Assembly: GCA_043805415.1 (NCBI GenBank)
Contig: JAZDHZ010000007.1
Span: 29,786-93,785, forward strand
Origin: Candidatus Omnitrophota bacterium
Lineage (GTDB): Bacteria > Omnitrophota > Gorgyraeia > B26-G9
Length of the DNA: 64,000 nucleotides
Direction of reading: 5' to 3'
Part shown: positions 4,840 to 53,042 of the stretch, in pieces
Numbering within the stretch: the first letter of the stretch is position 1
Layout: every line of letters begins with the position of its first letter
Translations under genes and position numbers: made by a program
Notes under the pieces: generated by a model
Told to the model about the DNA's origin: nothing
What the model saw: the letters and a program-made list of their open reading frames with translations, nothing else
The model's database searches: none

Positions 4840-4872
4840 AGGATTTCCTTTGTTTAATATATTTAACCGCGG

Positions 4873-7051: not shown

Positions 7052-7076
7052 ATATTTCCCTTTTAGTAATAAAGAA

Positions 7077-7964: not shown

Positions 7965-7986
7965 TTCAGTTTCTTCTGGTTTATCA

Positions 7987-34004: not shown

Positions 34005-35567
34005 TCAGAGGCTATCCGGTTTATAGTAAAGTACCTCCACTCCATCCCATACAAATCTACTTTCTTTCTCTAATTTATAATTTTTTTGTAAACCCAACTT
34101 AAGCTTGCGCATATTTTCTCTGCCATACCAATCAGGAGACACAACTATCCAAAAGGCATGCCGCCGAACAAGGGGATTAAAAACCTCATCACAATTAGCT
34201 GGTATATTTCCTAATTCAAAGCCTGTAATTAAATTATCCTTATCGTAAAACTCTTTAACCCATTTATCATTAATCTTTCTAGTTTTCCCAAAAAAGGAAT
34301 CCCCGATATCTTTCAGCTGCCTTGGTTCATTATATTTATAGTAATACCAGAAAGGTGTGATCTGCGCCATCGGAAAAAATACTATAGAATCTCCTTTTTG
34401 CATATTCTTCTTAACTAAAAAAGCAATCTCTCTCCAAGAGTCCTGGTTAGGCGCATAATAATAATAAACTAAATTTATTGAATAACTTAAAACAAAAAAA
34501 CCGATAAGCAACCTGCTTATGTCCTTTCTTAATGACAAAAACATCCGTCCAACTAGCAAACAAAATGCAGGGAGAAGAATAATAGCGATTTTACTCCACC
34601 GGCTAAAAGCCACAAACAAATTTACTATCCCAAAAATCCCAAACGGAATAAAAAACCATAAAATAGTAAAACCATCATTAAATTTTATCTTTTGTTCACT
34701 TTTCCTTTTGCAAAGCAAAAATCGCAAAAAAACCAAATAGGTTAAGCCCAATATCATGTAGAAACCGCATTTTGTAATCCATGGTCTATTGGTATCTAAA
34801 TATCCTCCCACCCCTGCTTGCGATAATACTCTTCCGTAACTAAAATCTTCTATTAGCATTTTAAAAATATTTTCATTAACAATCGGGCAATACTTATCAT
34901 TCTCTATTTCAATATTATAATGGTTAAGCACCGGGATAAGCAGGATTGATGCTAACAGGATTATAACTGCCTGCATAGACATCCAGCGTTTTAAATCAAT
35001 TTTAAACAAAAACAAAAAACAATTTGTTAACAGAAAAACCATACCGCCAATAAAAGGATTTGTATACACCAGCATAAGCAGACTTACCGGATAGGCTATC
35101 CAATAAAATAACTTCGGTTTACGCCTTAGCTGCAATAAGCAAAATGCTGTGCTGATAAACAGCAACATTGCTAAGGAATACCACCTTGCTTGTTGACTAC
35201 GAATCACATGGTAAGCTGATAAAGCGAGCAATAAAGCGCAAAATAATCCTATTTTTTTATTAAATAATAGCTTGCCTAAGCGGTATAGCATAATTATCGA
35301 TAGGGTCCCAAAAACCACAGACAGCATTCTAAGATTAAACTCCGTATACCCAAACAAAGATGCCCAGCACTTAACTATCATAAAATATAATGGTCTGATC
35401 GAATAATGATGGAAAAAAATAGTTCCCCAGTCTTTTTGCGCGAAAGCCACGGTAAATGCCTCATCAAGCCAAAGACTCTTGGCATCAAGCTTGAATACGC
35501 GCAATAAAAGCCCAAGCATAGTAATAATTAAAAGTGGAACATTAATTTTTCTAAATTTATGAATCAT
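34005..35567 (-). CDS. GT-C-fold glycosyltransferase, ArnT/PMT (GT39/83)-like, polyprenol-phosphate-sugar dependent
   Basis: The N-terminus LLRVFKLDAKSLWLDEAFTVAFAQ is the typical ArnT/PMT first-loop DE motif. It is followed by about 11 TM helices and a C-terminal periplasmic domain. Confidence 0.65.
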   Translation of the reverse strand: MIHKFRKINVPLLIITMLGLLLRVFKLDAKSLWLDEAFTVAFAQKDWGTIFFHHYSIRPLYFMIVKCWASLFGYTEFNLRMLSVVFGTLSIIMLYRLGKLLFNKKIGLFCALLLALSAYHVIRSQQARWYSLAMLLFISTAFCLLQLRRKPKLFYWIAYPVSLLMLVYTNPFIGGMVFLLTNCFLFLFKIDLKRWMSMQAVIILLASILLIPVLNHYNIEIENDKYCPIVNENIFKMLIEDFSYGRVLSQAGVGGYLDTNRPWITKCGFYMILGLTYLVFLRFLLCKRKSEQKIKFNDGFTILWFFIPFGIFGIVNLFVAFSRWSKIAIILLPAFCLLVGRMFLSLRKDISRLLIGFFVLSYSINLVYYYYAPNQDSWREIAFLVKKNMQKGDSIVFFPMAQITPFWYYYKYNEPRQLKDIGDSFFGKTRKINDKWVKEFYDKDNLITGFELGNIPANCDEVFNPLVRRHAFWIVVSPDWYGRENMRKLKLGLQKNYKLEKESRFVWDGVEVLYYKPDSL

Positions 35568-36124
35568 TTTAAAATAATCTCGTTTTGCTGAAGCATTTTC
35601 CGCGTATCTACTTCAATTAAAATAAACTTATCAATAAAAATTTTCCCTTCCATTTTCATTGTTTTCTGTTCCCAACAGGAATTCTTTGAATCCGCCCAAA
35701 ATCTTATTTTTGCTTTACCTTTGCGCAATTTCCAAAAAGGTTCCGCGCTAGGACTGCGGTATTCCCAGCGGCCCTGGCCATGCGGCAAATACCAGCGCTG
35801 CTCGGAAAATACATAATTATAATAATGCTTGCCTTGCGCGTCAGTAAGCTTAATATATATAAATGGACAATATTTACGCCATTGGTGATAGAGGCTTATA
35901 TAGAGCTGATAATATCCATCCTCAGGGATATCAATATTTAAAGTCTGAACAGCATTACTCTTGTCTGTGGCAATTGCCTGCCGGTCATCAAGCAAAACTT
36001 TCTCCCAATCACCGGTTGAATTTTTAATTAAAAAAGTAAGCGGCTGCTCAGCGGCATAAACCAAATCCGCTGCCGCGAATATAAACAAAACAATAAATCC
36101 GAATTTAATTATCCGCTTAAACAT
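35564..36124 (-). CDS. secreted hypothetical protein
   Basis: The signal-anchor MFKRIIKFGFIVLFIFAAADLVYA is present. The start was trimmed to this Met. Confidence 0.45.
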   Translation of the reverse strand: MFKRIIKFGFIVLFIFAAADLVYAAEQPLTFLIKNSTGDWEKVLLDDRQAIATDKSNAVQTLNIDIPEDGYYQLYISLYHQWRKYCPFIYIKLTDAQGKHYYNYVFSEQRWYLPHGQGRWEYRSPSAEPFWKLRKGKAKIRFWADSKNSCWEQKTMKMEGKIFIDKFILIEVDTRKMLQQNEIILK

Positions 36125-37226
36125 AATTAGGCAATTCCGGATATGTATTATTAGCCGGCATCTCCCAGTCCATGGACACATCCGCTATCCTATCTCCTTT
36201 AATCTCAATCATTGATTCTTTTATCTGGCCTAATCCCTGCTGATAAGCTAAACGCAGATGTTTAACATACCAGGGAACGCCAAGATCTTTATTCTTAGGC
36301 CGCGGCTGCCAATTCCTTGTGATAATCCGCGTAGCCGTGGCGTCAGTAGCCACAGGGTCAAAGCCGGCAATCACCAAAGCCCCTCCCAGAATCGCGCTGA
36401 TATCAACTGTTTTACCGCCTAAAAATTTAACCACGCCTTCGCCTTGCATTCCATAAGCGCCGCTGATTACTGTCAGGCGGGGTTTTATCCCTTTATTTAT
36501 ATCCACGATAACTTGATGGATTCCGGCTTGATGCAATTTAGCTCTTGGCTCGCCATAAATCACGGAAGGCATTATTCCCATGAAGTTTTTCATGCCAAGA
36601 GTAACTGAAATCGGCCAATGATGCGTTTTAAGCACCGCGATTGAAATAACGGTATCCGCTTTTTTAACAATGTCCGGGATCGCTAACCAATCGAGCTTGC
36701 TACACGATGGAACATAAATAAATGATTTTGTATGTTCCCGCAGATTGATCAGCGACACTTTATTCCCGTATTTTTTATTTATTTCCTCAATTAATTTTTT
36801 TACTTGCGCGCCTTCAATATTTTTTTTCCCTTGCCATAAAATATTAAGCGGCCGTTCAATCCATTCCCCGATAATAACATGCTTAGCTCCGGCTTTAACA
36901 CATTCGCGAGCGACTGCCGCGACAACCTCCGGATGCGGTATTTCACCTGCGGTAACCGGATCATGCCCCATCAAGCCGCCGGTAATATAATTTGGCTTGA
37001 TAAAAACAATCTGCCTTGGTTTAACAACTTTTCCCACACCGCCGATTATCGCCAAAGCCTGTTCCGTAGTTTTTCTAATATCATTACCTTTAATTACCCC
37101 AACAATGCTCGGAGAAATTATCGTCTCTTTCCCATAAATATATTCAGGCAATAGCGCTTGGGCGGCTAATCCCGCGCCAAAGCCCAGGCTTGTCTTAACA
37201 AATTCTCTTCTGGTGAATTTCTTCAT
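36117..37226 (-). CDS. Tat-signal (twin-arginine) exported protein, DUF362-like?, function unknown
   Basis: The N-terminus MKKFTRREFVKTSLGFGAGLAAQA matches the S/T-R-R-x-F-L-K Tat consensus. Confidence 0.5.
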   Translation of the reverse strand: MKKFTRREFVKTSLGFGAGLAAQALLPEYIYGKETIISPSIVGVIKGNDIRKTTEQALAIIGGVGKVVKPRQIVFIKPNYITGGLMGHDPVTAGEIPHPEVVAAVARECVKAGAKHVIIGEWIERPLNILWQGKKNIEGAQVKKLIEEINKKYGNKVSLINLREHTKSFIYVPSCSKLDWLAIPDIVKKADTVISIAVLKTHHWPISVTLGMKNFMGIMPSVIYGEPRAKLHQAGIHQVIVDINKGIKPRLTVISGAYGMQGEGVVKFLGGKTVDISAILGGALVIAGFDPVATDATATRIITRNWQPRPKNKDLGVPWYVKHLRLAYQQGLGQIKESMIEIKGDRIADVSMDWEMPANNTYPELPNYV

Positions 37227-38149
37227 AAAAATAATGCTCGGTTATAGCGTTTTTTTCTAAGCGCCGGGAAATAATCATATATTTGCCGCAAAGCTTTAGA
37301 AGTATTCTTATTAAATAAAAGCATAAAAATGAATCGGGGTAATTCGTAAATAAAAAAACCGAATACAAACAGCAGCAAATGCTTCCAGCTCCCGTTTTTA
37401 ATCAGGAGAAAATATCTATTGCGAAAAGAAAGATACTGTTTAAACGGATCGCTATGCTCAGAACTTTCGCGGTAATGATAGGCAATAGCCGTAGGCACAT
37501 ACATAGCACTCCATCCGCGAATCCGCGCCCTCCAGGCCAAGTCAAAATCCTCGACTAAAAAAAAGAATTTTTCATCAAAAAATTCATCTTTATCCCGGAC
37601 AGCATCCAGTAATTCTTTTTTATAAACAGCCGCCGCGGCGCATGGACCGAAGATCTCAATTTGCTTATCAAATTTCTTACTATCAGCTTTAGCTTCTCCA
37701 ATATTGTAAAGCCGCATTAGCGCCGAGAACCGCAAGCCCAGGCTATCGATTGTTTTCCTATCCAGCCTAAGTAATCTGCCCTGCACCATGCCGACATGTT
37801 TGTGCTTATCAAGACAATCTTTTAAATCTCTAATGTATCCTTTTTCCAATATCACATCACTATTTAATGTAAAAATATAAGCCCCTTCAGCTTTAAGGAT
37901 CGCTTGATTATTAGCAGCGCAAAAACCGCTATTTATTTTATTTTTAATCAGCTTTATCCGATCCGAGTAATCTTCTAATATAGTAAGCGTCTTATCGGTT
38001 GAGCCATTATCCACGACAATAATCTCCATATCCTCAATTTGCTGTAAAAATACTGACTCAAGACAATCCTGTATAAATTTTTCAGCGTTCCATGTTACGA
38101 TAACTACGCTTACCTGAACCATCGTTTTCCTTAATCCCCTATTATTCAA
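37223..38149 (-). CDS. glycosyltransferase family 2
   Basis: VSVVIVTWNAEKFI, DNGSTDKT and TLNSDVIL (DxD-like) are present. Confidence 0.8.
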   Translation of the reverse strand: MNNRGLRKTMVQVSVVIVTWNAEKFIQDCLESVFLQQIEDMEIIVVDNGSTDKTLTILEDYSDRIKLIKNKINSGFCAANNQAILKAEGAYIFTLNSDVILEKGYIRDLKDCLDKHKHVGMVQGRLLRLDRKTIDSLGLRFSALMRLYNIGEAKADSKKFDKQIEIFGPCAAAAVYKKELLDAVRDKDEFFDEKFFFLVEDFDLAWRARIRGWSAMYVPTAIAYHYRESSEHSDPFKQYLSFRNRYFLLIKNGSWKHLLLFVFGFFIYELPRFIFMLLFNKNTSKALRQIYDYFPALRKKRYNRALFL

Positions 38150-38153
38150 ATTA

Positions 38154-39620
38154 TTATTTTGCTCTAAAATATTTTATTTCCAATAAAAATCGCCGATAAG
38201 CTTTTACAATAAACCCGGCAAATCCATAACGTTTAAAAGTCTCGATAACCCACTTTAAAAAACTGCGCTGTTTTATTTTTTTCTTTAAATATAAATGATC
38301 GCGGATAAGCAAAGCCTGCTGTTTTATTTTTTCTATCTGTCCATGATTATAGCTTGGATAGCTTATCATTGCAAAATTTCCGCCATCATAATCACAAAAA
38401 ACCGCTTTCTCGCGCAACAAATTATTCTCTAAGGCGGTGTTATAAAAAGGAGTTCCCGGCTGGGGAGTACAAATAGAAAGCTGCAATCCGTCTAAAAGAT
38501 CCTGTTTTATCAGATCTTCCATAAACTGAATTGTTTTAGTATCTTCAGCATAATCAGACCCTAAGGCTCCAAAAGTAAATGTTCCGTAAGTTCTTAAGCC
38601 GATCTTTTTAGCTGATAATAATGTGTCTTGAATATGGGTTAAATTCATTGGTTTATTTATCGCCCGCATAACCTTTGCGCTTGCAGTCTCAATCCCGATT
38701 CTTATCTTATAATATCCGGCTTTTTTCATTGCCAGCAGCACTGGTTCATCTAAGAACCGCACATCACACATCGCTTCATAATGCAGAGTATTCAGCCCGG
38801 CGTTTATAATCGCCTTACTTAATTGCAAAATAAATTCTCTATTGCCGTTATGGACTTCTTCATCAAAGAAAACCCCCTGCATTTGAGGATATTTTTCTTT
38901 CAGATAGGCGATCTCTTTAACAAGATCATCCACATTACGGCCGCGCCAATTAGCGCGATTATAGTAAACATGCCGGGCAACGCAAAAATTACACGCTCCC
39001 GGACAGCCGCGCGACGCGTACATTTGAATTTCACGGAATTCGGAACTAGGCTCACCAGGAACAGCATAATCCAGCCTGCTGACATCCTCATCTTCTGGCC
39101 AAGGCAGCGCATTTATATCAAGTAATGGTCTTCTTTGATTTGGATAAACCCCTAATATCATCGCTTGATCAGGGTTTTGGATCAATTCTAATACCGAATA
39201 TTCATATTCACCGATGCAGACATTATCCACTCCCTGCTCAATAAGCTGCTGGGGAAAAGCAGTAGCATGCTGTCCGACAAAGATAATCCGGCTGGCACAG
39301 TCCTTTTTAATGTCTAAAGCTAAAGCCAGATTTTCATCAATCATCCGCGTAGCGCTTTCAAGTATTAAAATATCCGGTTTTAAGCTTTTAATAAGTTCCG
39401 AATAATGGGCTCGATCCATTTTCAGCAAACAGCCGTCAATAAATTTCACCTCATGCTTAGTTTCTTTTTTTAATAAGCTGGATAGATAAGCCAGCTCCCA
39501 GGGATAATAAGCAAACCAATGCGATTTATCTTTTACCCCCTCAGACCATCTGCTGGGCGAGTGGATTATATAGTATCCGTTTTTATCAATTCCAATTGAA
39601 TTAGCGATAACTATCTTCAT
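38154..39620 (-). CDS. cobalamin-binding-domain radical SAM protein (class B)
   Basis: B12-binding N-terminal domain and CPGACNFCVARH. Confidence 0.85.
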   Translation of the reverse strand: MKIVIANSIGIDKNGYYIIHSPSRWSEGVKDKSHWFAYYPWELAYLSSLLKKETKHEVKFIDGCLLKMDRAHYSELIKSLKPDILILESATRMIDENLALALDIKKDCASRIIFVGQHATAFPQQLIEQGVDNVCIGEYEYSVLELIQNPDQAMILGVYPNQRRPLLDINALPWPEDEDVSRLDYAVPGEPSSEFREIQMYASRGCPGACNFCVARHVYYNRANWRGRNVDDLVKEIAYLKEKYPQMQGVFFDEEVHNGNREFILQLSKAIINAGLNTLHYEAMCDVRFLDEPVLLAMKKAGYYKIRIGIETASAKVMRAINKPMNLTHIQDTLLSAKKIGLRTYGTFTFGALGSDYAEDTKTIQFMEDLIKQDLLDGLQLSICTPQPGTPFYNTALENNLLREKAVFCDYDGGNFAMISYPSYNHGQIEKIKQQALLIRDHLYLKKKIKQRSFLKWVIETFKRYGFAGFIVKAYRRFLLEIKYFRAK

Positions 39621-40708
39621 ATCAGCCTGATTACTTTCAATAAATCCTTTGCGGTTTTTTCCAGAGAGTACTTTTCCAATACAGTTTTTCTTGCTTTTTT
39701 ACCCATAGCCTGTCTAAGATTCTTATCTTTGCACAGCAAAAGCAGTTTATTCACAAAATCATCTTTAGTTACTGCCAGCATCCCATTCTCACCATCAATA
39801 ATAATTCTTCGCGCTTCCGCGAAACAACTGGCAACAAAGGGTTTTTCCATCGCCATATACTCAAACATCCGCGTCGGACTCTTAGCTTTGTTAAATTTAG
39901 TATCCTGAATTAGCGGCATTATTCCAATATCTATCTGATTAAGATATTCCGGAATATCTTCCGGAGCCATCCAATCCTTAATTATTATCAAATCGCTGTT
40001 TAGCTGTTCCACTTTCCGCTTAACTTCGGAAACATAAACTCCATCCCCAAGTATCTCCAGTTTAATTCCGCTGACTTTATTCCTTAATATCTGAAAACAA
40101 TCAATTAAAAAATAGAGGTTTTCTAAATTATCCTTGCGATGCATGGTTCCAATCCAGGACAAGACAAGGCCGTGTTTTTCAATTAGCTGCTTTTCCGGCT
40201 TAAATATCTCTGTATCCACCGCAGTAGGAGCATAAATAACATTCTGATTATACGAAAGCAAAAAATCTTCTAAAAATTTACTCGCGCCAAGACATAAACA
40301 ACTCTTCCGGGCAATAAAACTCATCGCGGCATATGCCAGAGATTTAGGGAATCTTCCAAAATAATATTCTATATTTTCCCTTGCCTCCCAATCATCTAAA
40401 TCAAAAATCAGCTTTCTGTTTCTCAATAAGCTTACCAGTAAAGGAGCCAGGGAATGATAATTACAACGCTGCAAAAATAAGACAGCATCTTTATCCCATA
40501 GATATTTAAAAGCCTTTAGATTATAGACCATCTTATCAGCCAGAGACATTTTTGATTCCTCTTTACCGCTTTTTGCCCCTAAATTATCGGCAAAAGAAAA
40601 TATCTCTGTTTCAATACCCGCTTGATTTAAATACTTGGCAAATCCGTAACAGCGCACTCTTACTGCCGGCATTTGTTTACTTTCTCTGGTTATAAATATT
40701 ATTTTCAT
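39617..40708 (-). CDS. glycosyltransferase family 4 (GT-B fold)
   Basis: The GT4 C-terminal EX7E region FEYMAMEKPFVAS is present. The overall GT-B length is typical. Confidence 0.75.
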   Translation of the reverse strand: MKIIFITRESKQMPAVRVRCYGFAKYLNQAGIETEIFSFADNLGAKSGKEESKMSLADKMVYNLKAFKYLWDKDAVLFLQRCNYHSLAPLLVSLLRNRKLIFDLDDWEARENIEYYFGRFPKSLAYAAMSFIARKSCLCLGASKFLEDFLLSYNQNVIYAPTAVDTEIFKPEKQLIEKHGLVLSWIGTMHRKDNLENLYFLIDCFQILRNKVSGIKLEILGDGVYVSEVKRKVEQLNSDLIIIKDWMAPEDIPEYLNQIDIGIMPLIQDTKFNKAKSPTRMFEYMAMEKPFVASCFAEARRIIIDGENGMLAVTKDDFVNKLLLLCKDKNLRQAMGKKARKTVLEKYSLEKTAKDLLKVIRLI

Positions 40709-40714
40709 CTGATT

Positions 40715-42112
40715 TTATTTTATTCTTTGAAAAATTAAATACCCTTTTAGCGTCTTTATTTTATCCCATTTTTCAAAATCAATATTCATCTCGGAAGATA
40801 AAGGTAAAACCAGGTATTGCTGTTTATTTTTCGGTTCAATATCGGCAAACTCTTTGGGTAAATAGCAAAAATTCAACTGCGGCAATCCGCTTTCCATGGC
40901 AATAAAACTATGAAAGCCGGCAGCTTGTTTTTGAATATAAATCAAAGAATCAGCACTTGCGTTTTTCTGCAGCCAAAAGCTAGCTTCTTTAACCAAAACC
41001 GGGACTTCAGGTCTTTGAAAAAATCCTGCCTGCAATGATAGTAAGCAGATGATAACTGTCGCCAGCAACGCGTATATTTTGCGTTTTAAGTTCAGCGCTT
41101 TTAATCCGGCAATAAGGCCCCTGACTAAATAAGGAATAAGCAGGGCCGCGACAAAAAGCGATCCTTGCTCCAGAATTAATATTTCCTTGCGAAAAACATT
41201 CAAGCTAAGCAAAAATACTATAGAAATTACGCATAAAAGATATCCCAAATCCTTTCTCTTTTTCACAGCGGAAAATATCCCGATTAAACCCAGGAAAAAT
41301 ATCCGGGACTCAGGCTTTAAGAATAAACCCGCTAATATCTGCCGCATGGTTTTGCCGACTAAAAACAGAAAAGTATATAAACTATCCGCTTCGTGAAAAT
41401 TTTTATACCACAACCAACCCGGTCCATATTGTTTATCAACAAGAAAATTCCAAAATAACGGAAAGATACAACTTATCGCTAAAAAGAGAAAACTGTTTAG
41501 CAGCTTCTGCTTGAGACTTTTTTCCTGCTTCAAAAGAATATAGATAATTATCCCTGGAGCTGTCAGCCAGGCCAGATAACTATAGCCGCAAGCAATCAGG
41601 CAAAAAACAGCCCCCAGTAAATATTTTTGCTCAAACACCATCCACAAGCACAAGAATAAAAATCCTATCGCGATAACCTCAGGCATAGTCACAACACTCA
41701 TTATTATATGCTGATAATAACTATACAGCAAAACTCCGGAGAGTAACGCGATTTTACTGTTAAATATTTTTTTTACTAAATAGTAATAGGGGATTAATGA
41801 AAGACTGGAAGCAGCCGCGATGAAAAATCTGGCACTAACTATCTGCTCCGAACCAAGCTTAACCGCCCCGGCAAGACTATATAAAAAAAGCGGTAATTGC
41901 TGATAAAAAATATTCTGGAGAAAAGCCGGTTTAGTTAATATATGCAAAGCAGTAGTGATATTCAGCATCGGCTCTGGGCCATAAAAATTATCCGAGCTAA
42001 GCAAAAAAGCAAACCGGATAAGATAAGCATCGATAAATAAACAAATCGCTACGACCAGATGGTTTTTTAATAATAAGGCGTAAATGGAATTATATTGTGG
42101 TTTTTGATTCAT
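40715..42112 (-). CDS. polytopic membrane protein, probable GT-C-type glycosyltransferase
   Basis: 465 aa with more than 10 TM helices, embedded among ArnT-like genes. No soluble catalytic motifs were seen. Confidence 0.45.
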   Translation of the reverse strand: MNQKPQYNSIYALLLKNHLVVAICLFIDAYLIRFAFLLSSDNFYGPEPMLNITTALHILTKPAFLQNIFYQQLPLFLYSLAGAVKLGSEQIVSARFFIAAASSLSLIPYYYLVKKIFNSKIALLSGVLLYSYYQHIIMSVVTMPEVIAIGFLFLCLWMVFEQKYLLGAVFCLIACGYSYLAWLTAPGIIIYILLKQEKSLKQKLLNSFLFLAISCIFPLFWNFLVDKQYGPGWLWYKNFHEADSLYTFLFLVGKTMRQILAGLFLKPESRIFFLGLIGIFSAVKKRKDLGYLLCVISIVFLLSLNVFRKEILILEQGSLFVAALLIPYLVRGLIAGLKALNLKRKIYALLATVIICLLSLQAGFFQRPEVPVLVKEASFWLQKNASADSLIYIQKQAAGFHSFIAMESGLPQLNFCYLPKEFADIEPKNKQQYLVLPLSSEMNIDFEKWDKIKTLKGYLIFQRIK

Positions 42113-46240: not shown

Positions 46241-46790
46241 TTTTAGGCCTCAAAAGCAAAGCAGTATAAGCAAATATGCTTTGGCTAAAACTAAAACTAT
46301 TTTCAATATAAAAATCCTCAAGAAAAAGCTTCGCGAATTCATCGCTATGGCGCACATAGTGGCCGCGGTCAAAGTACCTGATCAACCAACCCAGAACATT
46401 CAGCCTTGAATCAGGATAAACCCCGTCCGCAATAATTGCCCTGCCGTTTTTACTTAAAATTCGCTTTATCCGGACAATAAGCTGCTTTGCCTGTTTGGCA
46501 CTCAGATGATGAAAAAAGCTTACAGATAGAACATAATCAAAAAATCCATCCGGATAAGGCAAGCCCTGACATACATCCTGTAATTTATAAGTCCCATCCC
46601 TTCTTTCGGCAAGTTTTCTCAGTACATTCCTGTCCGCGTCTAAACCAATATAATTTTCCGGAGCGAATCCCCAGAAATTTCCGGTTTTCCCGCAGCCAAT
46701 ATCGAGAATTCTCGTTTTGCTTTTAATCTCCATATTTTTAAAAGCAAATCGGGTGATCTGGTCATAACACTTTTTTAGAAGAATTTTCAT
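46233..46790 (-). CDS. class I SAM-dependent methyltransferase
   Basis: SAM motif I is ILDIGCGKTGNF and a post-I acidic residue is present. The protein is 185 aa. Confidence 0.75.
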   Translation of the reverse strand: MKILLKKCYDQITRFAFKNMEIKSKTRILDIGCGKTGNFWGFAPENYIGLDADRNVLRKLAERRDGTYKLQDVCQGLPYPDGFFDYVLSVSFFHHLSAKQAKQLIVRIKRILSKNGRAIIADGVYPDSRLNVLGWLIRYFDRGHYVRHSDEFAKLFLEDFYIENSFSFSQSIFAYTALLLRPKND

Positions 46791-47854
46791 AATTTACAAC
46801 ACCGCACGCATCCCGGAAGAATCTTTTTGCTGAGAATCGCGGAAAACTCCCGGCGTTTTTGGTTTTGCCAAACATCAGACAGCTCTCCAGTTTTAATATT
46901 CCCCAGAATATAATCAGAAAAGAACTGACAAGGGATAATATCCCCATTAGCCTTGATAAATACAGAATGCCGCACAAACATACACTTGCGGTCAAAGTCA
47001 AAATTATTGGCAAACCATTTTTCCCGCTCCTTAGCCGTCAGGTAAGGCTTAAATATAATAAAATTTCCATATTTTTTCTTTAAACGCGAAACTTCTTTTT
47101 GCAGTTTGATCCCTATTCCCGGCTGATTAATGTCTTTGATATAGGTCGTCATTTCCGCTTCTTTTTCAGTTAACAGCCCATTGTCATCGCAGGCCGCTAG
47201 ATGCTGTTTATATTCATCCCGCGATAAAAAAATAAGCTGCTCAAATCTGACTCGATCAACACCTAATCTTTTGCCTTGGGCAATAATATCTTCTAAATCA
47301 TAATAATTATCCGGGGTGATCACGGAATTAAGCAATAAAGCGGCTTTTTTTCTATGGGCAACTGACAGTTCTATGGCTCTAGACAGCGCGGAATATGCTC
47401 CTTTTTTTCCGGTTTTAGCATCGTGGCCTAATTCATCTCCATGAACTGAAAAGATTACAACTTCCGGTTCAACATTAAAAAGTTTTTTAATTTTATCCTG
47501 ATCCAGCAATGTTCCATTAGTAACTAACCCATATTTTAAGTTGCACTGTTTAACCGCATGAAGAATTTCAAAAATATCTTTTCTGATAAACGGCTCTCCC
47601 CCTCCAAAAAAAACAGCGGGTTTATATCTTGCGATTTTCTTAATAAAACAAATAATATCTGCAGCCGGAAGCGCTTCGGCTTTATTCAGCATCGAATGGG
47701 CAGAGCAAATGCTACAGTCAAGATTGCAGTTATTTGTAATCAGAAAGTTTACAGTAACCGGGAATCTATTGCCCGCAGACAAAATTTGTCTTAGCGAAAA
47801 TAGACCGCGAAAGGCTAATAAATTATTTATTTGAGAATAAATACCGCGAAACAT
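46787..47854 (-). CDS. radical SAM/SPASM-domain protein
   Basis: CNLDCSICSAH is present. The C-terminal motif reads GDIIPCQFF...CVRCC. Confidence 0.8.
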   Translation of the reverse strand: MFRGIYSQINNLLAFRGLFSLRQILSAGNRFPVTVNFLITNNCNLDCSICSAHSMLNKAEALPAADIICFIKKIARYKPAVFFGGGEPFIRKDIFEILHAVKQCNLKYGLVTNGTLLDQDKIKKLFNVEPEVVIFSVHGDELGHDAKTGKKGAYSALSRAIELSVAHRKKAALLLNSVITPDNYYDLEDIIAQGKRLGVDRVRFEQLIFLSRDEYKQHLAACDDNGLLTEKEAEMTTYIKDINQPGIGIKLQKEVSRLKKKYGNFIIFKPYLTAKEREKWFANNFDFDRKCMFVRHSVFIKANGDIIPCQFFSDYILGNIKTGELSDVWQNQKRREFSAILSKKILPGCVRCCKL

Positions 47855-49555
47855 CTAGTTTATCCTTTTATAAATATGCACATTTTCATAAGTATTATCA
47901 TTTTTAAGATCATCCAAAACAATAGCGTTTATTTTTTGAAACTTTTCACGCATTGCAACCAGGCTTATTACATCAGCATCTTTAACAATTAACTGATTGG
48001 CGGTTTTTAAATTCATTTGCTCAAGAAACCGGCGGAAACTTTTTTTTGTTATCCATTGCTGGTCTGAGCGGCTAACAAAAATCATAATATCAAAATCATT
48101 TAATCCCGCCCAAAACACATCAGAACAAAACGAAAAATCAACTATTTGCGCTTTTTTTTGCGGTTTTAAACCAACTAATCTGACAAAATATGAAGGGAAA
48201 AATAAACCGATATTATCATTATCATAAAAAATCCCCACTTTAGCATCGCTATTGCCGATATTTTCCAGAACTTGGTTAACATCATAACTTCCGTTTTCCG
48301 AATAGGTTGCGTTTATTTTTGGCAAAGGCGGATAATAAGTAGCATAAAACATTCTATCTTTGCCCAATGAGAGCCGATAATAACTGAAAATGCTTATACA
48401 GATAACTGCGGCTATAATCAGAATTCGGATGAATTTTCTGTTTATGCTTGCTATTGCTAAACCAGTTATCAATCCAAAAGCCGGCAAATAAGCAATCGTG
48501 TATTCCGCGTATTTAAGTTTAATGAACGTAAACACGCAAAACGGCACTAATCCCCATAGGATTAGGATATATTTTATATATTTCGTGTTTTCTATATCTT
48601 TTGGATTTACTTTTTCTTTTAAGATTACTTTATCTTTTGCGTTTTGTTCAATCATGCCAAAATTAAAAAAAGCCGCGATCAATAGGAATAAGAAAAAAGC
48701 TCCGATTGTATTCAGCAATGAAACCAAATAATAACTAAGATGTTCAAAGGAAAACAGATTGTTGTTATTTACCGCTCCGATAAAGCCAGCTCGGTTCAGC
48801 ACACTCAGATAAACACCTTGATTATAGTAAAAAATAGAACTTATTAAAACCCCGATGCTCAGACAGATAAACAGATTAAGCTTTCTTTTATCCAAAATAA
48901 GACTTGCTTGTTTTTGGGAAAAGCATGCCCATAAGTAAAAACCCATTGGCCCAGAGATATAAATAAAAAATGTCTGTTTTGTCAGCATGCCCAAGCCTAA
49001 AAAAACACCCAGAAAAAAAGAAAATTTCAGATTCTGAAAAAAGTCAGTTTTAAGCAGAAAGTAAATACTTACCGCGCTCATAGCCGAAAGCGCGAGTTCA
49101 ATACTAAAATGCCGGGATGAGAGAAAAATCATCGGATACATGCCGCAGATAAAAGCACTGATGATTCCGGCAAGCGGGCTGATCCGGTTCGCGATAGCAT
49201 AAACACTTAAAAGCAAAATAATCAGATAAAAAGTATTGGTCAGCAAAGCCGCGTTCATAATAAAACTGCCTAATAGTAAATTTACTATACAAGCGCTGGC
49301 ATAAAACAAAGGCGGATAATCAATCACCCCGAAAACCAGATTATAAACCAGGCTTTTTTCCTGGCGATAAAAAGGATTATGTTTCCCGTTTTCAATAATC
49401 TGTTTAAAATTAGAATACGCGGTTAGATGCGCGTAGCTATCCTTGCCCTCGGCCAAAGGATGCTTGGCTAAAAAATAGAGATTATTCGTAATATGAAAAA
49501 TAATTAAAATTGCTAGTAACCCCAGGCATATGTATTTTATTTTTTTTTCATTCAT
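47855..49555 (-). CDS. polytopic membrane protein, probable GT-C-type (ArnT/PMT-like) glycosyltransferase
   Basis: 566 aa, multi-TM with a large C-terminal non-membrane domain. Adjacent genes abut it exactly at both ends. Confidence 0.5.
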   Translation of the reverse strand: MNEKKIKYICLGLLAILIIFHITNNLYFLAKHPLAEGKDSYAHLTAYSNFKQIIENGKHNPFYRQEKSLVYNLVFGVIDYPPLFYASACIVNLLLGSFIMNAALLTNTFYLIILLLSVYAIANRISPLAGIISAFICGMYPMIFLSSRHFSIELALSAMSAVSIYFLLKTDFFQNLKFSFFLGVFLGLGMLTKQTFFIYISGPMGFYLWACFSQKQASLILDKRKLNLFICLSIGVLISSIFYYNQGVYLSVLNRAGFIGAVNNNNLFSFEHLSYYLVSLLNTIGAFFLFLLIAAFFNFGMIEQNAKDKVILKEKVNPKDIENTKYIKYILILWGLVPFCVFTFIKLKYAEYTIAYLPAFGLITGLAIASINRKFIRILIIAAVICISIFSYYRLSLGKDRMFYATYYPPLPKINATYSENGSYDVNQVLENIGNSDAKVGIFYDNDNIGLFFPSYFVRLVGLKPQKKAQIVDFSFCSDVFWAGLNDFDIMIFVSRSDQQWITKKSFRRFLEQMNLKTANQLIVKDADVISLVAMREKFQKINAIVLDDLKNDNTYENVHIYKRIN

Positions 49556-50410
49556 TTATTTTTCCGGATTAGCTACTTGAATATTAACATCATCCACTAA
49601 TACCATTGGTAAAGGCATTCCCCGCGCCTGGTTTAAGGTAATTTCCAGCATTATTGCTCTTCCGTCATTAGGCACAGTTCCCTTTAATTCAATATATTCC
49701 CATTGGCTGCAAGCCGAGCCGGAAACACTGGCCAGATTATCCCATTGGCCATTAGGCTTAAGCACATTAACTGTAAATTTTATAATATCTCCTTTATACC
49801 ATAGACTTGCCTTTACATCCGCGTTGGGTAAAACCCCTAACCAGCATTCTGTCTGTCTATAACTATAAGCGTTATTAATCAGGCTTTTAGCCGTTTTTTT
49901 TGAATAATGATAACGGCTAGCCGGAACAAGACATTGAATTTTCAGACAGCTGGGCGCGGAATGAAACTCCTTACTATCAATACTGGCAATACTTTTTGAA
50001 TTAGGAAATAATTTCCCGCCATCAGAAGTTACCCAATGCTCCAAGCCCTGGTTAAAATCATTGTTCTCGAGTTTATGGTCAGGACTAAAATAATTTTTCT
50101 CAATATGAGTTTTAATATATCTCTCCGACTCAAAAAACTGTTTATAAAAAAAGCCTTTTATCGGCTCATAAAATATCCAGAATGAAAATATGGCCGTCAT
50201 TGCCAGGATTAAAATTATCTGAATCGGACCAAGATTAATCGCGTCTTCATCAACATTTGACTGCTCAGGATTTTTCTCCTCCTCAAAAAACCATCGAATA
50301 ATTTTCAACAGTTTATTTTCTTTCTTTGTTTTATGATCCTTGGGATCTTTATTCTCCTTACTCTCTTTATCTGCCGCATTCTCTTTATTGCCTTTATTTT
50401 CCTGATTCAT
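49556..50410 (-). CDS. membrane-anchored hypothetical protein (K/E-rich cytoplasmic tail, single TM, extracytoplasmic beta-rich domain)
   Basis: The N-terminus is low-complexity (NKENAADKESKENKDPKDHKTKKENK). A TM segment (ILILAMTAIFSFWIF) follows. The C-terminal domain has Trp/Cys in a CBM-like pattern. Confidence 0.45.
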   Translation of the reverse strand: MNQENKGNKENAADKESKENKDPKDHKTKKENKLLKIIRWFFEEEKNPEQSNVDEDAINLGPIQIILILAMTAIFSFWIFYEPIKGFFYKQFFESERYIKTHIEKNYFSPDHKLENNDFNQGLEHWVTSDGGKLFPNSKSIASIDSKEFHSAPSCLKIQCLVPASRYHYSKKTAKSLINNAYSYRQTECWLGVLPNADVKASLWYKGDIIKFTVNVLKPNGQWDNLASVSGSACSQWEYIELKGTVPNDGRAIMLEITLNQARGMPLPMVLVDDVNIQVANPEK

Positions 50411-52085
50411 CGCCCCTCCTTTTTACCAGAAAATCGCCTATAGCCAGATAATCCAGCCCGCTTTTCTGAAAACTGTTTATCGCGTCTTGCGGACTGCGGA
50501 CAATCGGTTCTTCATGAATATTAAAACTCGTATTTAATACTCCCGGAATATTGGTAATCTGTTTATATTCAGTAAGAATCTGATACAAATCATTATTTGA
50601 CTCGCCACAGACAAACTGCGGCCGGGTTGTCTTGTCTTTGTGCACAGCCGCGGGACAGGTTCTTTGAAAATAATCCGTTGCCTTAAAACTTATATTCATA
50701 AACTGTCCGGAATATTCCGCCTTTTGCGTATTAACGCAGCATTTTGACTTATATTCATCAAGAATACTTGGACCAAAAGGCATAAATCCGTCTCTGCGCA
50801 GTTTAATGTTCAGAGAATTCTGGATATCGCTGTCTGTGGCCTGCGCCAGAATCGAGCGGTTGCCCAAAGCTCTTGGCCCAAACTCCATCCTTCCACTAAA
50901 CCTGGCGACAACTTTTTCCTGACTAAGCAATTCGGCGATCTGCCTATGAATATGATTGCTTTTTATATATTCAATTTTTAGAGCTTCCAGGGTTTCTTGG
51001 ATTTGCTCATTTGAATAGCTTGGCCCCCAGAAAACATTGTTTACTTTAAACGGCTTTTGTTTTTTAACGAAAAAAGCCGCGCCTAAACCTAATCCGCCGT
51101 CCCCCATATGCGGACAGACAAACAACGTTTCTACCGGCGCGAGTTCGCAGATTTTCTGATTAACTTTTATATTAGCAAAAAATCCGCCGCTGAGCACAAC
51201 TTTGGAAATACCGGTTTTCTCAACCCAATAAGCCACTATTCGCTCTAAACAATCCTCAGCCTGTTTTTGAAAAGAAGCCGCGACTTCCTGTTTACTGAAT
51301 GTTTTTAAGCGGCTGAATATTTCCCTGTCTTTAACAAAAGGATTCTTTGGTTTAAATCTGCCTTTTTTTACGCGCAAAAGTCTGATTGCCTGCTCTAAAG
51401 CCGGGTATTCATCACCATAAGCCGCCAGTCCCATTACCTTGCCTTCATCCTGTATCGGCTTAAACCCGAGAAATTCAGTTAAGCGCGAATAATAAAGAGT
51501 TATATCATTTAAAGCGCTTTGCCGGAATAGCGGCTTTATTATTCCGTCCCTGCCGATATTAACGCTAAAGGACACGCCGTCGCCTAATCCGTCAATAGTA
51601 ATAATCAAAGCATTGTCAAAGCCGCAAATACTATAAGCGCAATAAGCATGCGCTGTATGATGGTCAACACTAATCACTTTGGCTTTAATTCCCAGCCTGC
51701 TTAATTTTCGGCTTAAAACCCCGCGGCTTAAAAACGCTTCGATTTTTTTAAGCAAAATAAATTTTTCCGCCAGAACCTGATAAGTAATATACCCGGCTAA
51801 TAAAAAGCTGAATTGCTTATTGCCGCTTCTAAGCTTAGCATGGCTTTGGGAAAATAACCTTAAAATAAATGCCGGAGTCATGTCCGAAGCCGCGGCAACC
51901 AAACTGACATCTTCGGGTTTTATTTTCTTTAAACGTAAAACTTCTTTGATTGACAAAACCGGAAATCCGCCCTGAAGTTTAATCCGGCTCAAACGCTCTT
52001 CATTAACCGCGACAATTTCAGGGGATTGACTGCTGAGCAAAGCCGCGCCCGCGTCCTGGCTGTCGCAGATTCCGAGTATATACAT
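50394..52085 (-). CDS. carbamoyltransferase, NodU/CmcH family
   Basis: The N-terminus MYILGICDSQDAGAALL...VNEERLSRIK is the Kae1/YgjD-like ASKHA start of NodU/CmcH. The size (563 aa) and the C-terminal carbamoyltransferase domain fit the family. Confidence 0.85.
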   Translation of the reverse strand: MYILGICDSQDAGAALLSSQSPEIVAVNEERLSRIKLQGGFPVLSIKEVLRLKKIKPEDVSLVAAASDMTPAFILRLFSQSHAKLRSGNKQFSFLLAGYITYQVLAEKFILLKKIEAFLSRGVLSRKLSRLGIKAKVISVDHHTAHAYCAYSICGFDNALIITIDGLGDGVSFSVNIGRDGIIKPLFRQSALNDITLYYSRLTEFLGFKPIQDEGKVMGLAAYGDEYPALEQAIRLLRVKKGRFKPKNPFVKDREIFSRLKTFSKQEVAASFQKQAEDCLERIVAYWVEKTGISKVVLSGGFFANIKVNQKICELAPVETLFVCPHMGDGGLGLGAAFFVKKQKPFKVNNVFWGPSYSNEQIQETLEALKIEYIKSNHIHRQIAELLSQEKVVARFSGRMEFGPRALGNRSILAQATDSDIQNSLNIKLRRDGFMPFGPSILDEYKSKCCVNTQKAEYSGQFMNISFKATDYFQRTCPAAVHKDKTTRPQFVCGESNNDLYQILTEYKQITNIPGVLNTSFNIHEEPIVRSPQDAINSFQKSGLDYLAIGDFLVKRRGDESGK

Positions 52086-53042
52086 TTAAACTTTTTCCTT
52101 GTTCTCTGGTTTTATTCTGTAACTGGACTGGTCGCGCATACCGGAATAAAGCCGGATAACAATCTCGGCTAAAATCCCGATTAAAATAAACTGAATGCCA
52201 ATTATAAAAAAAAGCACGAATAAAAATAAAAGCGGGCTGACCCACTGCCCGGCCCATAAGACTTTGCGCAGAACGATAAACACGCCGATGAGTACGGAAA
52301 ATACCACGGAAACCAGGCCAATGCCGCCGAATACCTGCATCGGTTTGGCCATGAATTTCCAGGTAAATAAAATCGTCAACATATCCAGGATAACTTTAAA
52401 AAACCGCGACGCGCCGTATTTTGAGCAGCCGTGTTTTCTTTCATGATGGCGCACCGGGATTTCACCGATCTTCGCTCCCTGTATGGCCGCGCATAAAGGT
52501 AAAAACCGGTGAATATCCCCTTTAAATTCAATATCTTTCAGCACCTTCGCTTTATAGGCTTTTAAGGTACAGCCCAGATCATGCAGTTTTACCCCGGTCA
52601 AGCGGGCGCTGAGAAAATTCGCCAGCGCTGAAGGCAGTTTTTTGCCCCAGAAACTGTCCCGGCGCTTGATCCGCCAGCCGCTGACCACATCATAGCCCTG
52701 GCTGATTTTATCCAGCAGTTTGGGGATATCCCGCGGATCATTCTGCAGATCAGCATCCATAGTCACAATCAGCTTGGCCAAAGCATTATCCACACCCGCG
52801 GCAATTGCCTGGGTCTGTCCGTAATTTCTTAAAAAGGTTATTATCCGCGCGTGCTTATCGGCTTGGGCTATTTCCTCAAGCTCCTGGCTGCTGTTATCCG
52901 TACTGCCGTCATTAATAAAAATAACTTCATAATTAAAATCCATTTTACTCATCACATCAGTAATCTGCTGATCCAGGATCTTAAGATTGCCCTGTTCATT
53001 AAAAACCGGGATGATAATCGATACTTGAATATTATTTTCCAT
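52086..53042 (-). CDS. polyprenol-phosphate glycosyltransferase GT2 (ArnC/GtrB/Dpm1-like) with C-terminal TM helices
   Basis: VSIIIPVFNEQGNL and TMDADLQNDP (DAD.Q) are present, followed by two C-terminal hydrophobic helices. Confidence 0.85.
   Translation of the reverse strand: MENNIQVSIIIPVFNEQGNLKILDQQITDVMSKMDFNYEVIFINDGSTDNSSQELEEIAQADKHARIITFLRNYGQTQAIAAGVDNALAKLIVTMDADLQNDPRDIPKLLDKISQGYDVVSGWRIKRRDSFWGKKLPSALANFLSARLTGVKLHDLGCTLKAYKAKVLKDIEFKGDIHRFLPLCAAIQGAKIGEIPVRHHERKHGCSKYGASRFFKVILDMLTILFTWKFMAKPMQVFGGIGLVSVVFSVLIGVFIVLRKVLWAGQWVSPLLFLFVLFFIIGIQFILIGILAEIVIRLYSGMRDQSSYRIKPENKEKV

Follow-up and report, generated by a model that had tools for sequence, protein, structure and literature searches.

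A conserved operon rich in GT-C glycosyltransferases in Candidatus Omnitrophota resembles, but differs from, the aminoarabinose pathway

Introduction

Does an operon that combines an ArnC-like glycosyltransferase (GT), a DegT-family aminotransferase, and several polytopic membrane proteins of the GT-C fold encode an expanded version of the aminoarabinose (Ara4N, polymyxin-resistance) pathway, or does it build a different glycan? The question is raised by 64 kb of a Candidatus Omnitrophota metagenome-assembled genome (MAG), hereafter the window; all coordinates are window positions, and proteins are named by the first coordinate of their genes. A reading made from the DNA letters (hereafter the sequence-only reading) had described seven genes of this window as Ara4N-like logic with an ArnB-type aminotransferase, an ArnC-type synthase, and at least five GT-Cs of the ArnT/PMT type. 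These seven genes belong to a conserved 17-gene operon, which resembles the aminoarabinose pathway but is a different pathway. We favor, with a probability of roughly 60%, a split-compartment pathway for a conserved, heavily tailored envelope glycoconjugate of Omnitrophota that is assembled stepwise in the periplasm.

Bacteria of the phylum Omnitrophota occur widely, are for the most part uncultivated, are frequently ultra-small, and may be host-dependent, and to our knowledge nothing is known of their surface chemistry. The use of polyprenyl-phosphate-linked sugars by GT-C enzymes is a textbook principle. The three-component paradigm of a polyprenyl-phosphate GT (Pren-P GT), a flippase, and a GT-C is established, and multi-GT-C elaborations of unexplained significance have been noted (PMC11127046).

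A Conserved Seventeen-Gene Operon

The window consists of a single long array of genes, mostly on the minus strand. An NCBI protein 100% identical to a GT-C of the window carries a Candidatus Omnitrophota annotation, and the closest GTDB genome match is likewise an Omnitrophota MAG. The operon extends from 54215 to 34005 on that strand, with a largest intergenic gap of 18 nt and 10 overlaps between adjacent genes (gene order in Table 1). All seven genes of the sequence-only reading were present on the minus strand where it had placed them, and encode five proteins of the Pfam family PMT_2, one DegT-family aminotransferase, and one Pren-P GT2. The other ten genes of the operon, and its conservation across Omnitrophota, had not been mentioned.

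Thirteen genes, beginning with the Pren-P GT2 and ending with the GT2 at 37223, form a core whose order was retained in no fewer than seven independent contigs from relatives (L001, L002, L003/L004, L006, L009, L010, and the truncated L013). The core proteins were between 85% and ~32% identical across these contigs, and orthology was one-to-one for every gene. Each of the 17 operon genes had a one-to-one ortholog in contigs of related Omnitrophota/PVC, with orthologs of 16 genes present in L002. The flanks of the core differed among contigs: the leading GT4 was absent in L003 and L006, and the tail of GT2, DUF362, and hyp205 (the 205-aa protein 35564) was partly absent in L001, L006, and L009. 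In L001, this tail together with the gene for the 520-aa GT-C (GTC520) was replaced by one cassette, in reversed order, of a single-pass protein and a GT-C like the 566-aa protein 47855 (GTC566). The operon is vertically conserved in Omnitrophota. The long-term, one-to-one retention of each GT-C paralog speaks for distinct, non-redundant steps on a fixed structure, rather than a variable O-antigen. Horizontal transfer, or an O-antigen-like hypervariable island, was considered and rejected, as the GC content of the window was unremarkable and gene order was kept down to ~32-43% protein identity.

Directly upstream of the first operon gene, 857 bp (54216-55072) contained no open reading frame (ORF) and no Rfam match. 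It held weak sigma-70-like sites (54268-54205, minus strand) and a hairpin that resembles a terminator (54506-54492); the counterpart of this gap in L002 measures only ~40 bp. Scans for promoters and terminators, applied to this gap and to the region at 31-34 kb, were not informative, and neither tRNA genes nor Rfam elements were found in the window.

Comparison with the Aminoarabinose Pathway

The GT2 at 52086, the presumed synthase of the lipid-linked sugar donor, bears a likeness to its counterpart in the Ara4N pathway. Its alignment with Escherichia coli ArnC was full-length (319 residues, 37% identical, E 4e-64), and it matched the NCBIfam ArnC model (NF007986) at positions 7-309 of 316 with 218 bits, below the cutoff of 529; the score against the PgfS model was 149 bits, also below cutoff. 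Among solved homologs in the PDB, ArnC ranked best (E 1.6e-58), followed by GtrB (4e-36) and dolichyl-phosphate mannose synthase (DPMS, 3.5e-18), and the alignments with ArnC and GtrB were full-length. This protein is the sole Pren-P GT2 that has both a DADLQN motif (residues 96-101) and two predicted C-terminal transmembrane (TM) helices (240-258 and 272-290). DADLQx is the metal/nucleotide motif of Pren-P GTs, and ArnC itself has DADLQN (PMC12690121). The designation as an ArnC-type synthase was therefore borne out.

The DegT-family aminotransferase (42090) fits less well. It scored 152 bits against the ArnB model NF008658, whose cutoff is 631, and its 42% identity to E. coli ArnB is limited to the N-terminal 170 residues. 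The best PDB match was 7b0d (E 5.5e-46), whereas ArnB (9e-31) ranked about eleventh, behind other sugar and inositol aminotransferases. K182, within the lysine motif SFNLFK at residue 177, aligns with the lysine of the 7b0d sequence FYPTKNL and was taken as the residue that binds pyridoxal phosphate (PLP). Orthologs share an insertion of ~50 aa (approximately residues 208-276), which is predicted to include a hydrophobic helix and is atypical for the family. Judged by these comparisons, the enzyme resembles other sugar aminotransferases at least as closely as it does ArnB, and its designation as ArnB-type did not hold.

The E. coli K-12 arn proteins were also compared with every window ORF by blastp and with the six-frame translation by tblastn. 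No homologs of ArnA, ArnD, ArnE, or ArnF were detected in the window (nothing better than E 0.04), and no ORF matched the corresponding Pfam families. ArnT gave blastp E > 3 for all GT-Cs of the window. Furthermore, E. coli ArnT matches Pfam PMT (PF02366) at 211 bits, whereas the GT-Cs of the window matched PMT_2 only and never PF02366, so the label ArnT/PMT-type does not apply to them in its proper sense, which corresponds to CAZy GT83/GT39. The operon thus shares with the Arn system (PmrHFIJKLM of E. coli and Salmonella) an ArnC-type synthase and the presence of a DegT-family aminotransferase and PMT-clan GT-Cs in one operon. In contrast to Arn, it has six GT-Cs in place of one ArnT, ten further genes that are foreign to Arn, and a DegT protein that is not an ArnB ortholog. 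Of the proposed Ara4N-like logic, the combination of an ArnC-like GT2 with several GT-Cs stood, while the ArnB and ArnT assignments and the remainder of the pathway did not.

GT-C Glycosyltransferases and Their Partner Proteins

Five operon proteins were assigned to PMT_2 (PF13231), which is a catch-all family. GT-Cs 43330 and 44831, whose genes overlap by 17 nt, are 32% identical over 425 aa (E 1.8e-66 by BLAST), in agreement with their earlier description as tandem paralogs. GT-C 40715, previously listed as a probable GT-C, barely exceeded the PMT_2 gathering cutoff (26.5 vs. 26.1 bits, a margin of 0.4 bits). Two paralogous relationships, with 44831 (25% identical across 446 aa, E 4e-19) and with 43330 (E 4e-12), back this borderline assignment, and the protein also has an invariant first-loop aspartate (D41). 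On the other hand, BLAST revealed no more than marginal similarity between 34005 and 47855, or between either of them and the other GT-Cs. On sequence grounds, the five PMT_2 proteins fall into three lineages and do not represent a single gene in five copies.

The AlphaFold2 model of 44831 (pLDDT 89.5, pTM 0.89) was compared with the PDB by Foldseek, and every significant match was a GT-C enzyme. These matches included AglB, STT3, and PglB (E 4e-8 to 1e-4), ArnT (5f15, E 1e-5, with the best TM-score, 0.67), as well as ALG12, Pmt4, AftB, and Emb. For this model and that of 31008 (see below), non-GT-C matches appeared only at E >=0.04 and with low probability. Thirty-one homologs of 44831 were gathered, and 25 of these were aligned with the three window paralogs. 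The conserved residues of 44831 are D38, R182, E184, and Q316-P-R-Y-G320; 43330 retains D44, the R-x-E pair, and QPRYG. Acidic residues just after the first TM helix were invariant among orthologs in every GT-C, namely D28/E36 in 34005 (where the first loop reads LWLDEAF), D41 in 40715, D44 in 43330, D38 in 44831, E36/D39 in 47855, and D46 in 31008. By homology of fold, this acidic first loop would face the extracytoplasmic side. The refutation foreseen in the sequence-only reading, that the membrane proteins would lack the first-loop acidic motif or the GT-C fold, hence did not come about; the fold was supported by way of the 44831 model.

The basis of the fold assignment differs among the proteins. 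It came from models for 44831 and 31008, from BLAST similarity to 44831 for 43330 and 40715, and from PMT_2 and an hhalign match to the 44831 family profile (E 1e-5) for 34005. GT-C 47855, which has ~11 predicted TM helices and a 173-aa C-terminal domain, was assigned by its PMT_2 match and conserved first-loop residues. When the 44831-family profile was aligned by hhalign with 47855, 31008, and 13596 as single sequences, no significant match resulted. Searches of PDB sequences with the GT-Cs, as single sequences or as profiles, returned nothing useful. None of the five PMT_2 proteins matched YfhO (PF09586), an identity that had been raised as an alternative for them, nor did they match STT3, Emb, or other GT-C Pfam families (E up to 10 for the three proteins that were re-scanned). 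A WWDYG-type oligosaccharyltransferase (OST) motif was seen neither in 31008 nor in the other GT-Cs. Weak matches were recorded for 34005 and 44831 to TIGR03663 Agl23 (E 6e-7 and 1e-6; 28-29 bits against a 126-bit cutoff), for 44831 to NCBIfam LA3751_2_3_fam (E 2e-7), and for some GT-C orthologs to PF02366.

The earlier count of at least five GT-Cs was an undercount. The 564-aa membrane protein 31008 had no Pfam or NCBIfam match, but its AlphaFold2 model (pLDDT 89.2) matched DPY19, PglB, STT3, AftA, and AglB in Foldseek (E 4e-8 to 8e-6). Profile-profile comparison of its family with that of 44831 by hhalign gave a co-linear alignment (E 1.3e-4) with a common P-R-Y motif, and in L005 the ortholog of 31008 comes immediately after that of GTC520. 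The model identifies 31008 as a sixth GT-C.

Two GT-C genes directly follow a gene for a small predicted periplasmic protein with one TM helix. The 284-aa protein 49556 has a predicted periplasmic domain of ~200 aa and is conserved in all related loci, where its gene always lies immediately upstream of a GTC566-type gene, save for the reversed order in L001. The family is rare (only 49 cluster representatives among 1.84 billion), and the periplasmic domain recurs within giant beta-helix/Big/FG-GAP proteins, in stretches that Pfam leaves unannotated. Extra copies of the cassette formed by a 49556-like and a GTC566-like gene were present in L003, L006, L010, and L013, with the L001 copy in reversed order. 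Since the 284-aa protein and GT-C 566 duplicate as a unit in relatives, a functional partnership is suggested. The second such protein, 35564, is signal-anchored, has orthologs that are 44-52% identical, and probably starts at the methionine at residue 21. Pfam searches of the 49556 and 35564 proteins and their orthologs gave no match at E up to 10. CBM4_9-like carbohydrate-binding modules, considered for both proteins, were unsupported because these scans were empty.

The extra cassettes are located upstream of the Pren-P GT2 in L003 (228-2940), L006 (1-3278), L010, and L013, and the L001 copy at 18637-21014. Some of their GT-Cs measure only ~360 aa, and such loci hold up to eight PMT_2 genes. 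Outside the operon, the YfhO-family polytopic protein 13596 brings the number of GT-C-type proteins in the 64 kb to seven. It is preceded by a gene for an exported 282-aa protein without a known family (15491-16339, minus strand), and the two form a third pair of an exported partner and a GT-C-type protein. A degraded remnant of a 13596 paralog lies at 18138-18400 (minus strand) and consists of two fragments, one 42% identical to residues 569-628 and the other 65% identical to residues 176-195.

Other Glycosyltransferases and Tailoring Enzymes

The remaining operon genes encode three further GTs and several enzymes that could tailor sugars (Table 1). The first GT4 (53061) has no predicted TM helix, and its orthologs in L001, L002, and L009 are 64-85% identical; for the GT2 at 37223, NCBIfam matches were to generic GT2 models only. 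The carbamoyltransferase 50394 scored 109 bits against the NodU model, far below its cutoff, and its orthologs are 56-81% identical. The SPASM enzyme 46787 best matched NirJ1/AhbD-like NCBIfam models, far below their cutoffs, and gave PDB matches to SkfB, BlsE (E 1.4e-6), and, weakly, BtrN. The B12-binding enzyme 38154 was closest to HpnJ in NCBIfam (136 bits against a cutoff of 578) and to AprD4 in the PDB (E 2.5e-9). Because these radical S-adenosylmethionine (SAM) enzymes have sugar-acting relatives, sugar remodelling by them is plausible.

The DUF362 protein (36117) carries a conserved N-terminal TRRE(F/L)(V/L)K motif of the twin-arginine translocation (Tat) type, and its orthologs are 68% identical. 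No solved homolog was detected for it by sequence search. DUF362 and LarA belong to the same Pfam clan, CL0471 (PMC11770544).

Table 1. Genes of the operon, in operon order, and related genes of the 64-kb window
Operon position	Coordinates	Strand	Feature	Evidence
1	53061-54215	-	GT4 (GT-B)	Pfam Glycos_transf_1 E 4e-23, Glyco_transf_4
2	52086-53042	-	Pren-P GT2 (ArnC/GtrB/DPMS type), presumed lipid-linked sugar donor synthase	PF00535 E 1.2e-32
3	50394-52085	-	NodU/CmcH-type O-carbamoyltransferase	Carbam_trans_C E 2e-55, Carbam_trans_N E 4e-30
4	49556-50410	-	Single-pass membrane protein, 284 aa, directly upstream of GTC566-type gene	One predicted TM helix
5	47855-49555	-	GT-C, 566 aa, distant from other paralogs	PMT_2 E 5.9e-8
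6	46787-47854	-	Radical SAM/SPASM enzyme	Radical_SAM E 1e-17, SPASM E 3e-11; CxxxCxxC at residue 43
7	46233-46790	-	Class I SAM methyltransferase	Methyltransf_11 E 3e-13
8	44831-46240	-	GT-C, 469 aa, tandem paralog A	PMT_2 E 2.7e-14
9	43330-44847	-	GT-C, 505 aa, tandem paralog B	PMT_2 E 1e-11
10	42090-43337	-	DegT/DnrJ/EryC1 PLP aminotransferase	PF01041 E 3.8e-69, in two stretches
11	40715-42112	-	GT-C, 465 aa, divergent third member of 43330/44831 subfamily	PMT_2 E 8.4e-6
12	39617-40708	-	Second GT4 (GT-B)	Glyco_trans_1_4 E 1e-18; 27% identical to 53061 GT4
13	38154-39620	-	B12-binding radical SAM enzyme	Radical_SAM + B12-binding; orthologs 61-80% identical
14	37223-38149	-	GT2 (GT-A)	PF00535 E 1.6e-30
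15	36117-37226	-	DUF362 protein, twin-arginine signal, presumably periplasmic	PF04015 E 2.5e-29
16	35564-36181	-	Signal-anchored predicted periplasmic protein, 205 aa (hyp205), directly upstream of GT-C 34005	One N-terminal TM helix
17	34005-35567	-	GT-C, 520 aa, last gene of tight operon	PMT_2 E 1.5e-8
	31008-32702	-	Sixth GT-C-fold membrane protein, 564 aa	AlphaFold2 model + Foldseek
	55073-56752	-	B12-binding radical SAM, conserved upstream neighbor	Pfam; beyond 857-bp gap from operon
	26749-27735	-	Radical SAM, 328 aa	54-55% identical to L005 gene 7445-8431
	13596-15494	-	YfhO-family polytopic protein, outside operon	Orthologs P0050, P0051 carry PF09586

Proposed Pathway and Alternative Explanations

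In the pathway that we favor, the two GT4s and the GT2 at 37223 would make a precursor on the cytoplasmic face, to judge from their families. The sugars would be tailored by the DegT-family aminotransferase, the NodU-type carbamoyltransferase, the SAM methyltransferase, and the SPASM and B12-binding radical SAM enzymes, and the ArnC/GtrB-type Pren-P GT2 would place a monosaccharide on polyprenyl phosphate. The lipid-linked sugar would then be flipped by a flippase encoded outside the window. On the periplasmic face, the five PMT_2 GT-Cs and the divergent sixth GT-C, each with a different position or acceptor, would draw sugar from the lipid-linked donor(s) and build one defined, conserved envelope glycan stepwise, probably assisted by the two small single-pass periplasmic proteins and the Tat-exported DUF362 protein. 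The gene content, GT-C fold, first-loop acidic residues, Pren-P GT signature, and conserved operon structure were shown by the analysis; the compartment of each step, the topology of the GT-Cs, the logic of one donor for many transferases, and the envelope glycan as product are what we infer from them. The general logic of the sequence-only reading, periplasmic transfer from polyprenol-linked donors to several acceptors or linkages, is supported by the Pren-P GT2 together with several GT-Cs.

Several observations weigh against this pathway. Pfam scans of all window ORFs revealed no flippase (GtrA, SMR/EamA, MATE, or Wzx), and the window held no free small ORF with at least two predicted TM helices. 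Neither an initiating phosphoglycosyltransferase (by Pfam) nor a nucleotide-sugar dehydratase or dehydrogenase that would give the DegT protein a keto-sugar was found in the window. The radical SAM enzymes scored far below every curated family cutoff, and their chemistry is a guess. GT-C 40715 lacks equivalents of R182/E184 and QPRYG, which both of its paralogs keep, and may, judging by these residues, be non-catalytic. In addition, the relatives are all MAG or metagenome contigs, and the product cannot for this reason be tied to a known glycan.

The GT-Cs that complicate this picture are the subject of one alternative, in which only some of the paralogs are transferases and at least one, such as 40715, is the missing lipid-sugar flippase or a non-catalytic scaffold, as has been proposed for the archaeal PMT_2-like Agl23. 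The absence of a flippase gene from the window, the weak similarity of 34005 and 44831 to Agl23, and the residues lost from 40715 are consistent with it. However, the Agl23 scores lie far under the cutoff, 40715 retains the invariant first-loop aspartate, and a flippase could be encoded elsewhere in the genome, so we give this explanation only a slim chance. Somewhat less improbable, but still unlikely, is protein O-glycosylation of the PMT/Pgf type, in which the GT-Cs would use a polyprenyl-phosphate-linked sugar to initiate and elongate glycans on proteins that are exported to the surface, for example S-layer, pilus, or giant adhesin-like proteins. The membership of the GT-Cs in PMT_2, the weak PF02366 matches of some orthologs, the similarity of the GT2 to Streptococcus mutans PgfS, whose system has two GT-Cs, and the recurrence of the 49556 periplasmic domain in giant surface proteins would fit such a role. 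On the other hand, MIR, TPR, or other domains that bind protein acceptors and a candidate acceptor protein are lacking from the operon, the cytoplasmic GT4/GT2 enzymes together with the tailoring of sugars point to an acceptor that is lipid-linked or polymeric, and no score reached the curated cutoffs.

An expanded Ara4N pathway would have the DegT protein make a 4-amino sugar nucleotide, the ArnC-like GT2 transfer it onto undecaprenyl phosphate, and ArnT-like GT-Cs place the cationic sugar at several sites of lipid A or lipopolysaccharide. Besides the similarities to ArnC, to the N-terminal half of ArnB, and, in structure, to ArnT, a radical SAM enzyme could in principle stand in for the oxidative decarboxylation by ArnA, and BlsE, a radical SAM sugar decarboxylase, is a weak match of 46787. 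ArnC accepts the formylated sugar only (PMC12690121), yet the window contains no formyltransferase or deformylase. Decoration with a single sugar has no need of six GT-Cs, three further GTs, a carbamoyltransferase, and a methyltransferase, and with the missing Arn homologs, the lack of ArnT similarity and of its PF02366 match, and the scores far below the ArnB and ArnC equivalog cutoffs, we attach very little credence to this explanation. A natural-product cluster (aminoglycoside-, aminocyclitol-, or RiPP-like, i.e., of peptides that are ribosomally synthesized and modified post-translationally) that makes a modified pseudo-oligosaccharide or glycosylated peptide also appears very unlikely. 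HpnJ, the hopanoid-biosynthesis-associated protein that best matches 38154 in NCBIfam, is implicated in forming a cyclitol ether, and AprD4, its best solved homolog, belongs to apramycin biosynthesis. The best solved homolog of the DegT protein is annotated as glutamine--scyllo-inositol transaminase, 2-deoxy-scyllo-inosose aminotransferases also match it, and the window is extremely rich in SPASM and B12-binding radical SAM genes. Omnitrophota MAGs have moreover been reported to carry and express biosynthetic gene clusters (PMC9902471). Against such a product stand the six polytopic GT-Cs and the Pren-P GT2, which have no role in known aminoglycoside or RiPP pathways, and the vertical conservation of an operon that adjoins the dcw cluster and has several products predicted to be periplasmic; neither a precursor-peptide ORF nor a 2-deoxy-scyllo-inosose synthase, an exporter, or a resistance gene was seen.

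The favored split-compartment pathway can be extended, more tentatively, to a phylum-specific assembly line in which one polyprenyl-phosphate-linked sugar feeds at least six GT-Cs, some of them obligate pairs, and in which radical SAM remodelling contributes to a carbamoylated, methylated amino-glycan that defines the Omnitrophota surface. We regard this version as possible but doubtful. GT-Cs 43330 and 44831 would act as a heterodimer, and other GT-Cs would have dedicated single-pass periplasmic subunits that co-duplicate with them as a cassette. The SPASM enzyme and a membrane-docking DegT protein could convert a hydroxyl to a carbonyl and then to an amino group on the lipid-linked sugar, and the HpnJ/AprD4-like B12 enzyme could rearrange or deoxygenate the sugar.

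Relation to Characterized Systems

Multi-GT-C assembly lines, as in mycobacterial Aft/Emb/Mpt synthesis or the ALG pathway of the endoplasmic reticulum (ER), offer by analogy a closer comparison than lipid A decoration. In mycobacterial arabinan and lipomannan synthesis (AftA-EmbC-EmbA-EmbB, AftB/C/D, PimE, and MptA/B/C, with Ppm1 or decaprenylphosphoryl arabinose (DPA) donors), many GT-Cs, some of them tandem paralogs, similarly use one lipid-linked monosaccharide donor, a decaprenyl-phosphate-linked sugar, for one conserved envelope glycan, and cytoplasmic GT4 steps precede the periplasmic GT-C steps; AftA, AftB, and Emb were also among the structural matches of the operon-region GT-C models. 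In contrast, the GT-Cs studied here are PMT_2-like and do not belong to GT53, GT85, GT87, or GT89, the phylum and envelope type differ, and a donor pathway of the phosphoribosyl-pyrophosphate (PRPP)/DprE type is absent here, whereas radical SAM, carbamoyl, and amino tailoring is present. The ER-lumenal enzymes ALG3/9/12/6/8/10, considered together with OST (STT3/AglB/PglB), likewise form a GT-C series that adds single sugars from dolichyl-phosphate-linked donors to a lipid-linked oligosaccharide, and STT3, AglB, PglB, ALG9, and ALG12 were among the top structural matches. The operon differs from them in its bacterial polyprenol context and in the lack of an OST-type motif, and en bloc transfer to protein is not indicated.

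The three-component systems (GtrA/GtrB/Gtr* and Citrobacter ORF15/14/12 with GT136) combine a polyprenyl-phosphate-sugar synthase with one or more GT-Cs outside the cytoplasm and represent the minimal form of the logic proposed for the operon (PMC11127046). Unlike these three-gene O-antigen add-ons, the operon is stand-alone and conserved, includes tailoring enzymes and cytoplasmic GTs, pairs one synthase with six GT-Cs, and is accompanied by no flippase gene in the window. A Pren-P GT2 with at least two PMT_2-like GT-Cs is also found in the S. mutans Pgf system (PgfS, PgfM1, PgfE, and PgfM2) and is resembled by the tandem putative GT-Cs LA_3751/LA_3752 of Leptospira. The corresponding NCBIfam matches were weak and far below curated cutoffs, and the accessory genes differ.

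A literature search on Omnitrophota glycan and radical SAM clusters and on PF13231 retrieved no description of this operon. In the searched literature, a conserved six-GT-C operon in a phylum of the Planctomycetes-Verrucomicrobia-Chlamydiae (PVC) group, a GT-C family invisible to Pfam, the partner-protein cassettes, and the radical SAM, carbamoyl, and amino tailoring are all undescribed, and the coupling of such tailoring to GT-C assembly has no characterized precedent. If the proposed pathway is correct, it would represent a multi-GT-C extracytoplasmic assembly line outside Actinobacteria that resembles arabinomannan synthesis or the eukaryotic ALG pathway. Should the partner proteins prove to be genuine subunits, they would broaden what is known of how bacterial GT-C enzymes are built. 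The Pren-P GT, the Pfam-invisible GT-C family (31008), and the recurrent cassette of a single-pass partner and a GT-C are targets for heterologous reconstitution. The locus also calls for caution in annotation, as co-occurring ArnC-like, DegT, and PMT_2 genes do not indicate polymyxin-resistance chemistry.

Genomic Neighborhood

Radical SAM genes are very dense around the operon, with 15 Radical_SAM genes in the 64 kb (8952-63980) that are interleaved with GTs. They start at 8952 (plus strand), 16391, 18476, 20266, 21462, 22591, 26749, 27744, 28717, 32865 (plus strand), 38154, 46787, 55073, 56719, and 61032, and many of them carry B12-binding or SPASM domains. The upstream neighbor 55073 has orthologs at the same position in L001, L002, and L009 (52-74% identity). 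Beyond it, 56719-60918 (minus strand) encodes a 1399-aa protein with a B12-binding domain, two Radical_SAM stretches, and SPASM, whose ortholog occupies the same position in L002, and 61032-63980 (minus strand) encodes a 982-aa protein with Radical_SAM and SPASM in its C-terminal third and a Pfam-blank N-terminal region of ~630 aa.

Downstream of the operon, a SPASM radical SAM gene (32865-33887, plus strand) lies between GTC520 and the sixth GT-C. In L005 (GCA_024231215.1), which is equally rich in radical SAM genes downstream of the module, the ortholog of 26749 (7445-8431) is located inside the module between the hyp205 and GTC520 orthologs, whereas its window counterpart is ~7 kb downstream of the module; this differing placement reflects a local rearrangement. 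Two GT2 fusions are found in this region. The first (28717-30996, minus strand, 759 aa) joins a B12-binding radical SAM part to a GT2 part whose identity with the catalytic domain of ArnC is 28% (E 8e-13), and thus physically links radical SAM chemistry to glycosyl transfer. The second (23556-24782, minus strand, 408 aa) is a methyltransferase-GT2 fusion, and an AsnB-type amidotransferase gene (24813-26735) lies between the two.

The operon region adjoins the dcw cell-wall cluster, where genes for MraZ, MraW, an FtsL-like protein, FtsI, two Mur ligases, and MraY were identified at 502-8436. One Mur ligase gene (3357-4839, minus strand), judged to be MurE-like because it follows FtsI, is interrupted by a frameshift in a lysine-codon A-run and reads as two ORFs, 4399-4839 and 3357-4337. 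The frameshift is probably a MAG assembly or sequencing error and otherwise marks a pseudogene. Between this cluster and the YfhO-family gene, 10592-12226 (minus strand) encodes a Wzy_C/O-antigen-ligase-like polytopic protein (E 1.6e-16) whose best NCBIfam match is the IctB family, and a GT2 gene (12223-13215, minus strand) adjoins it. By its family, this protein could be a ligase or polymerase for the glycan of the operon or for another one.

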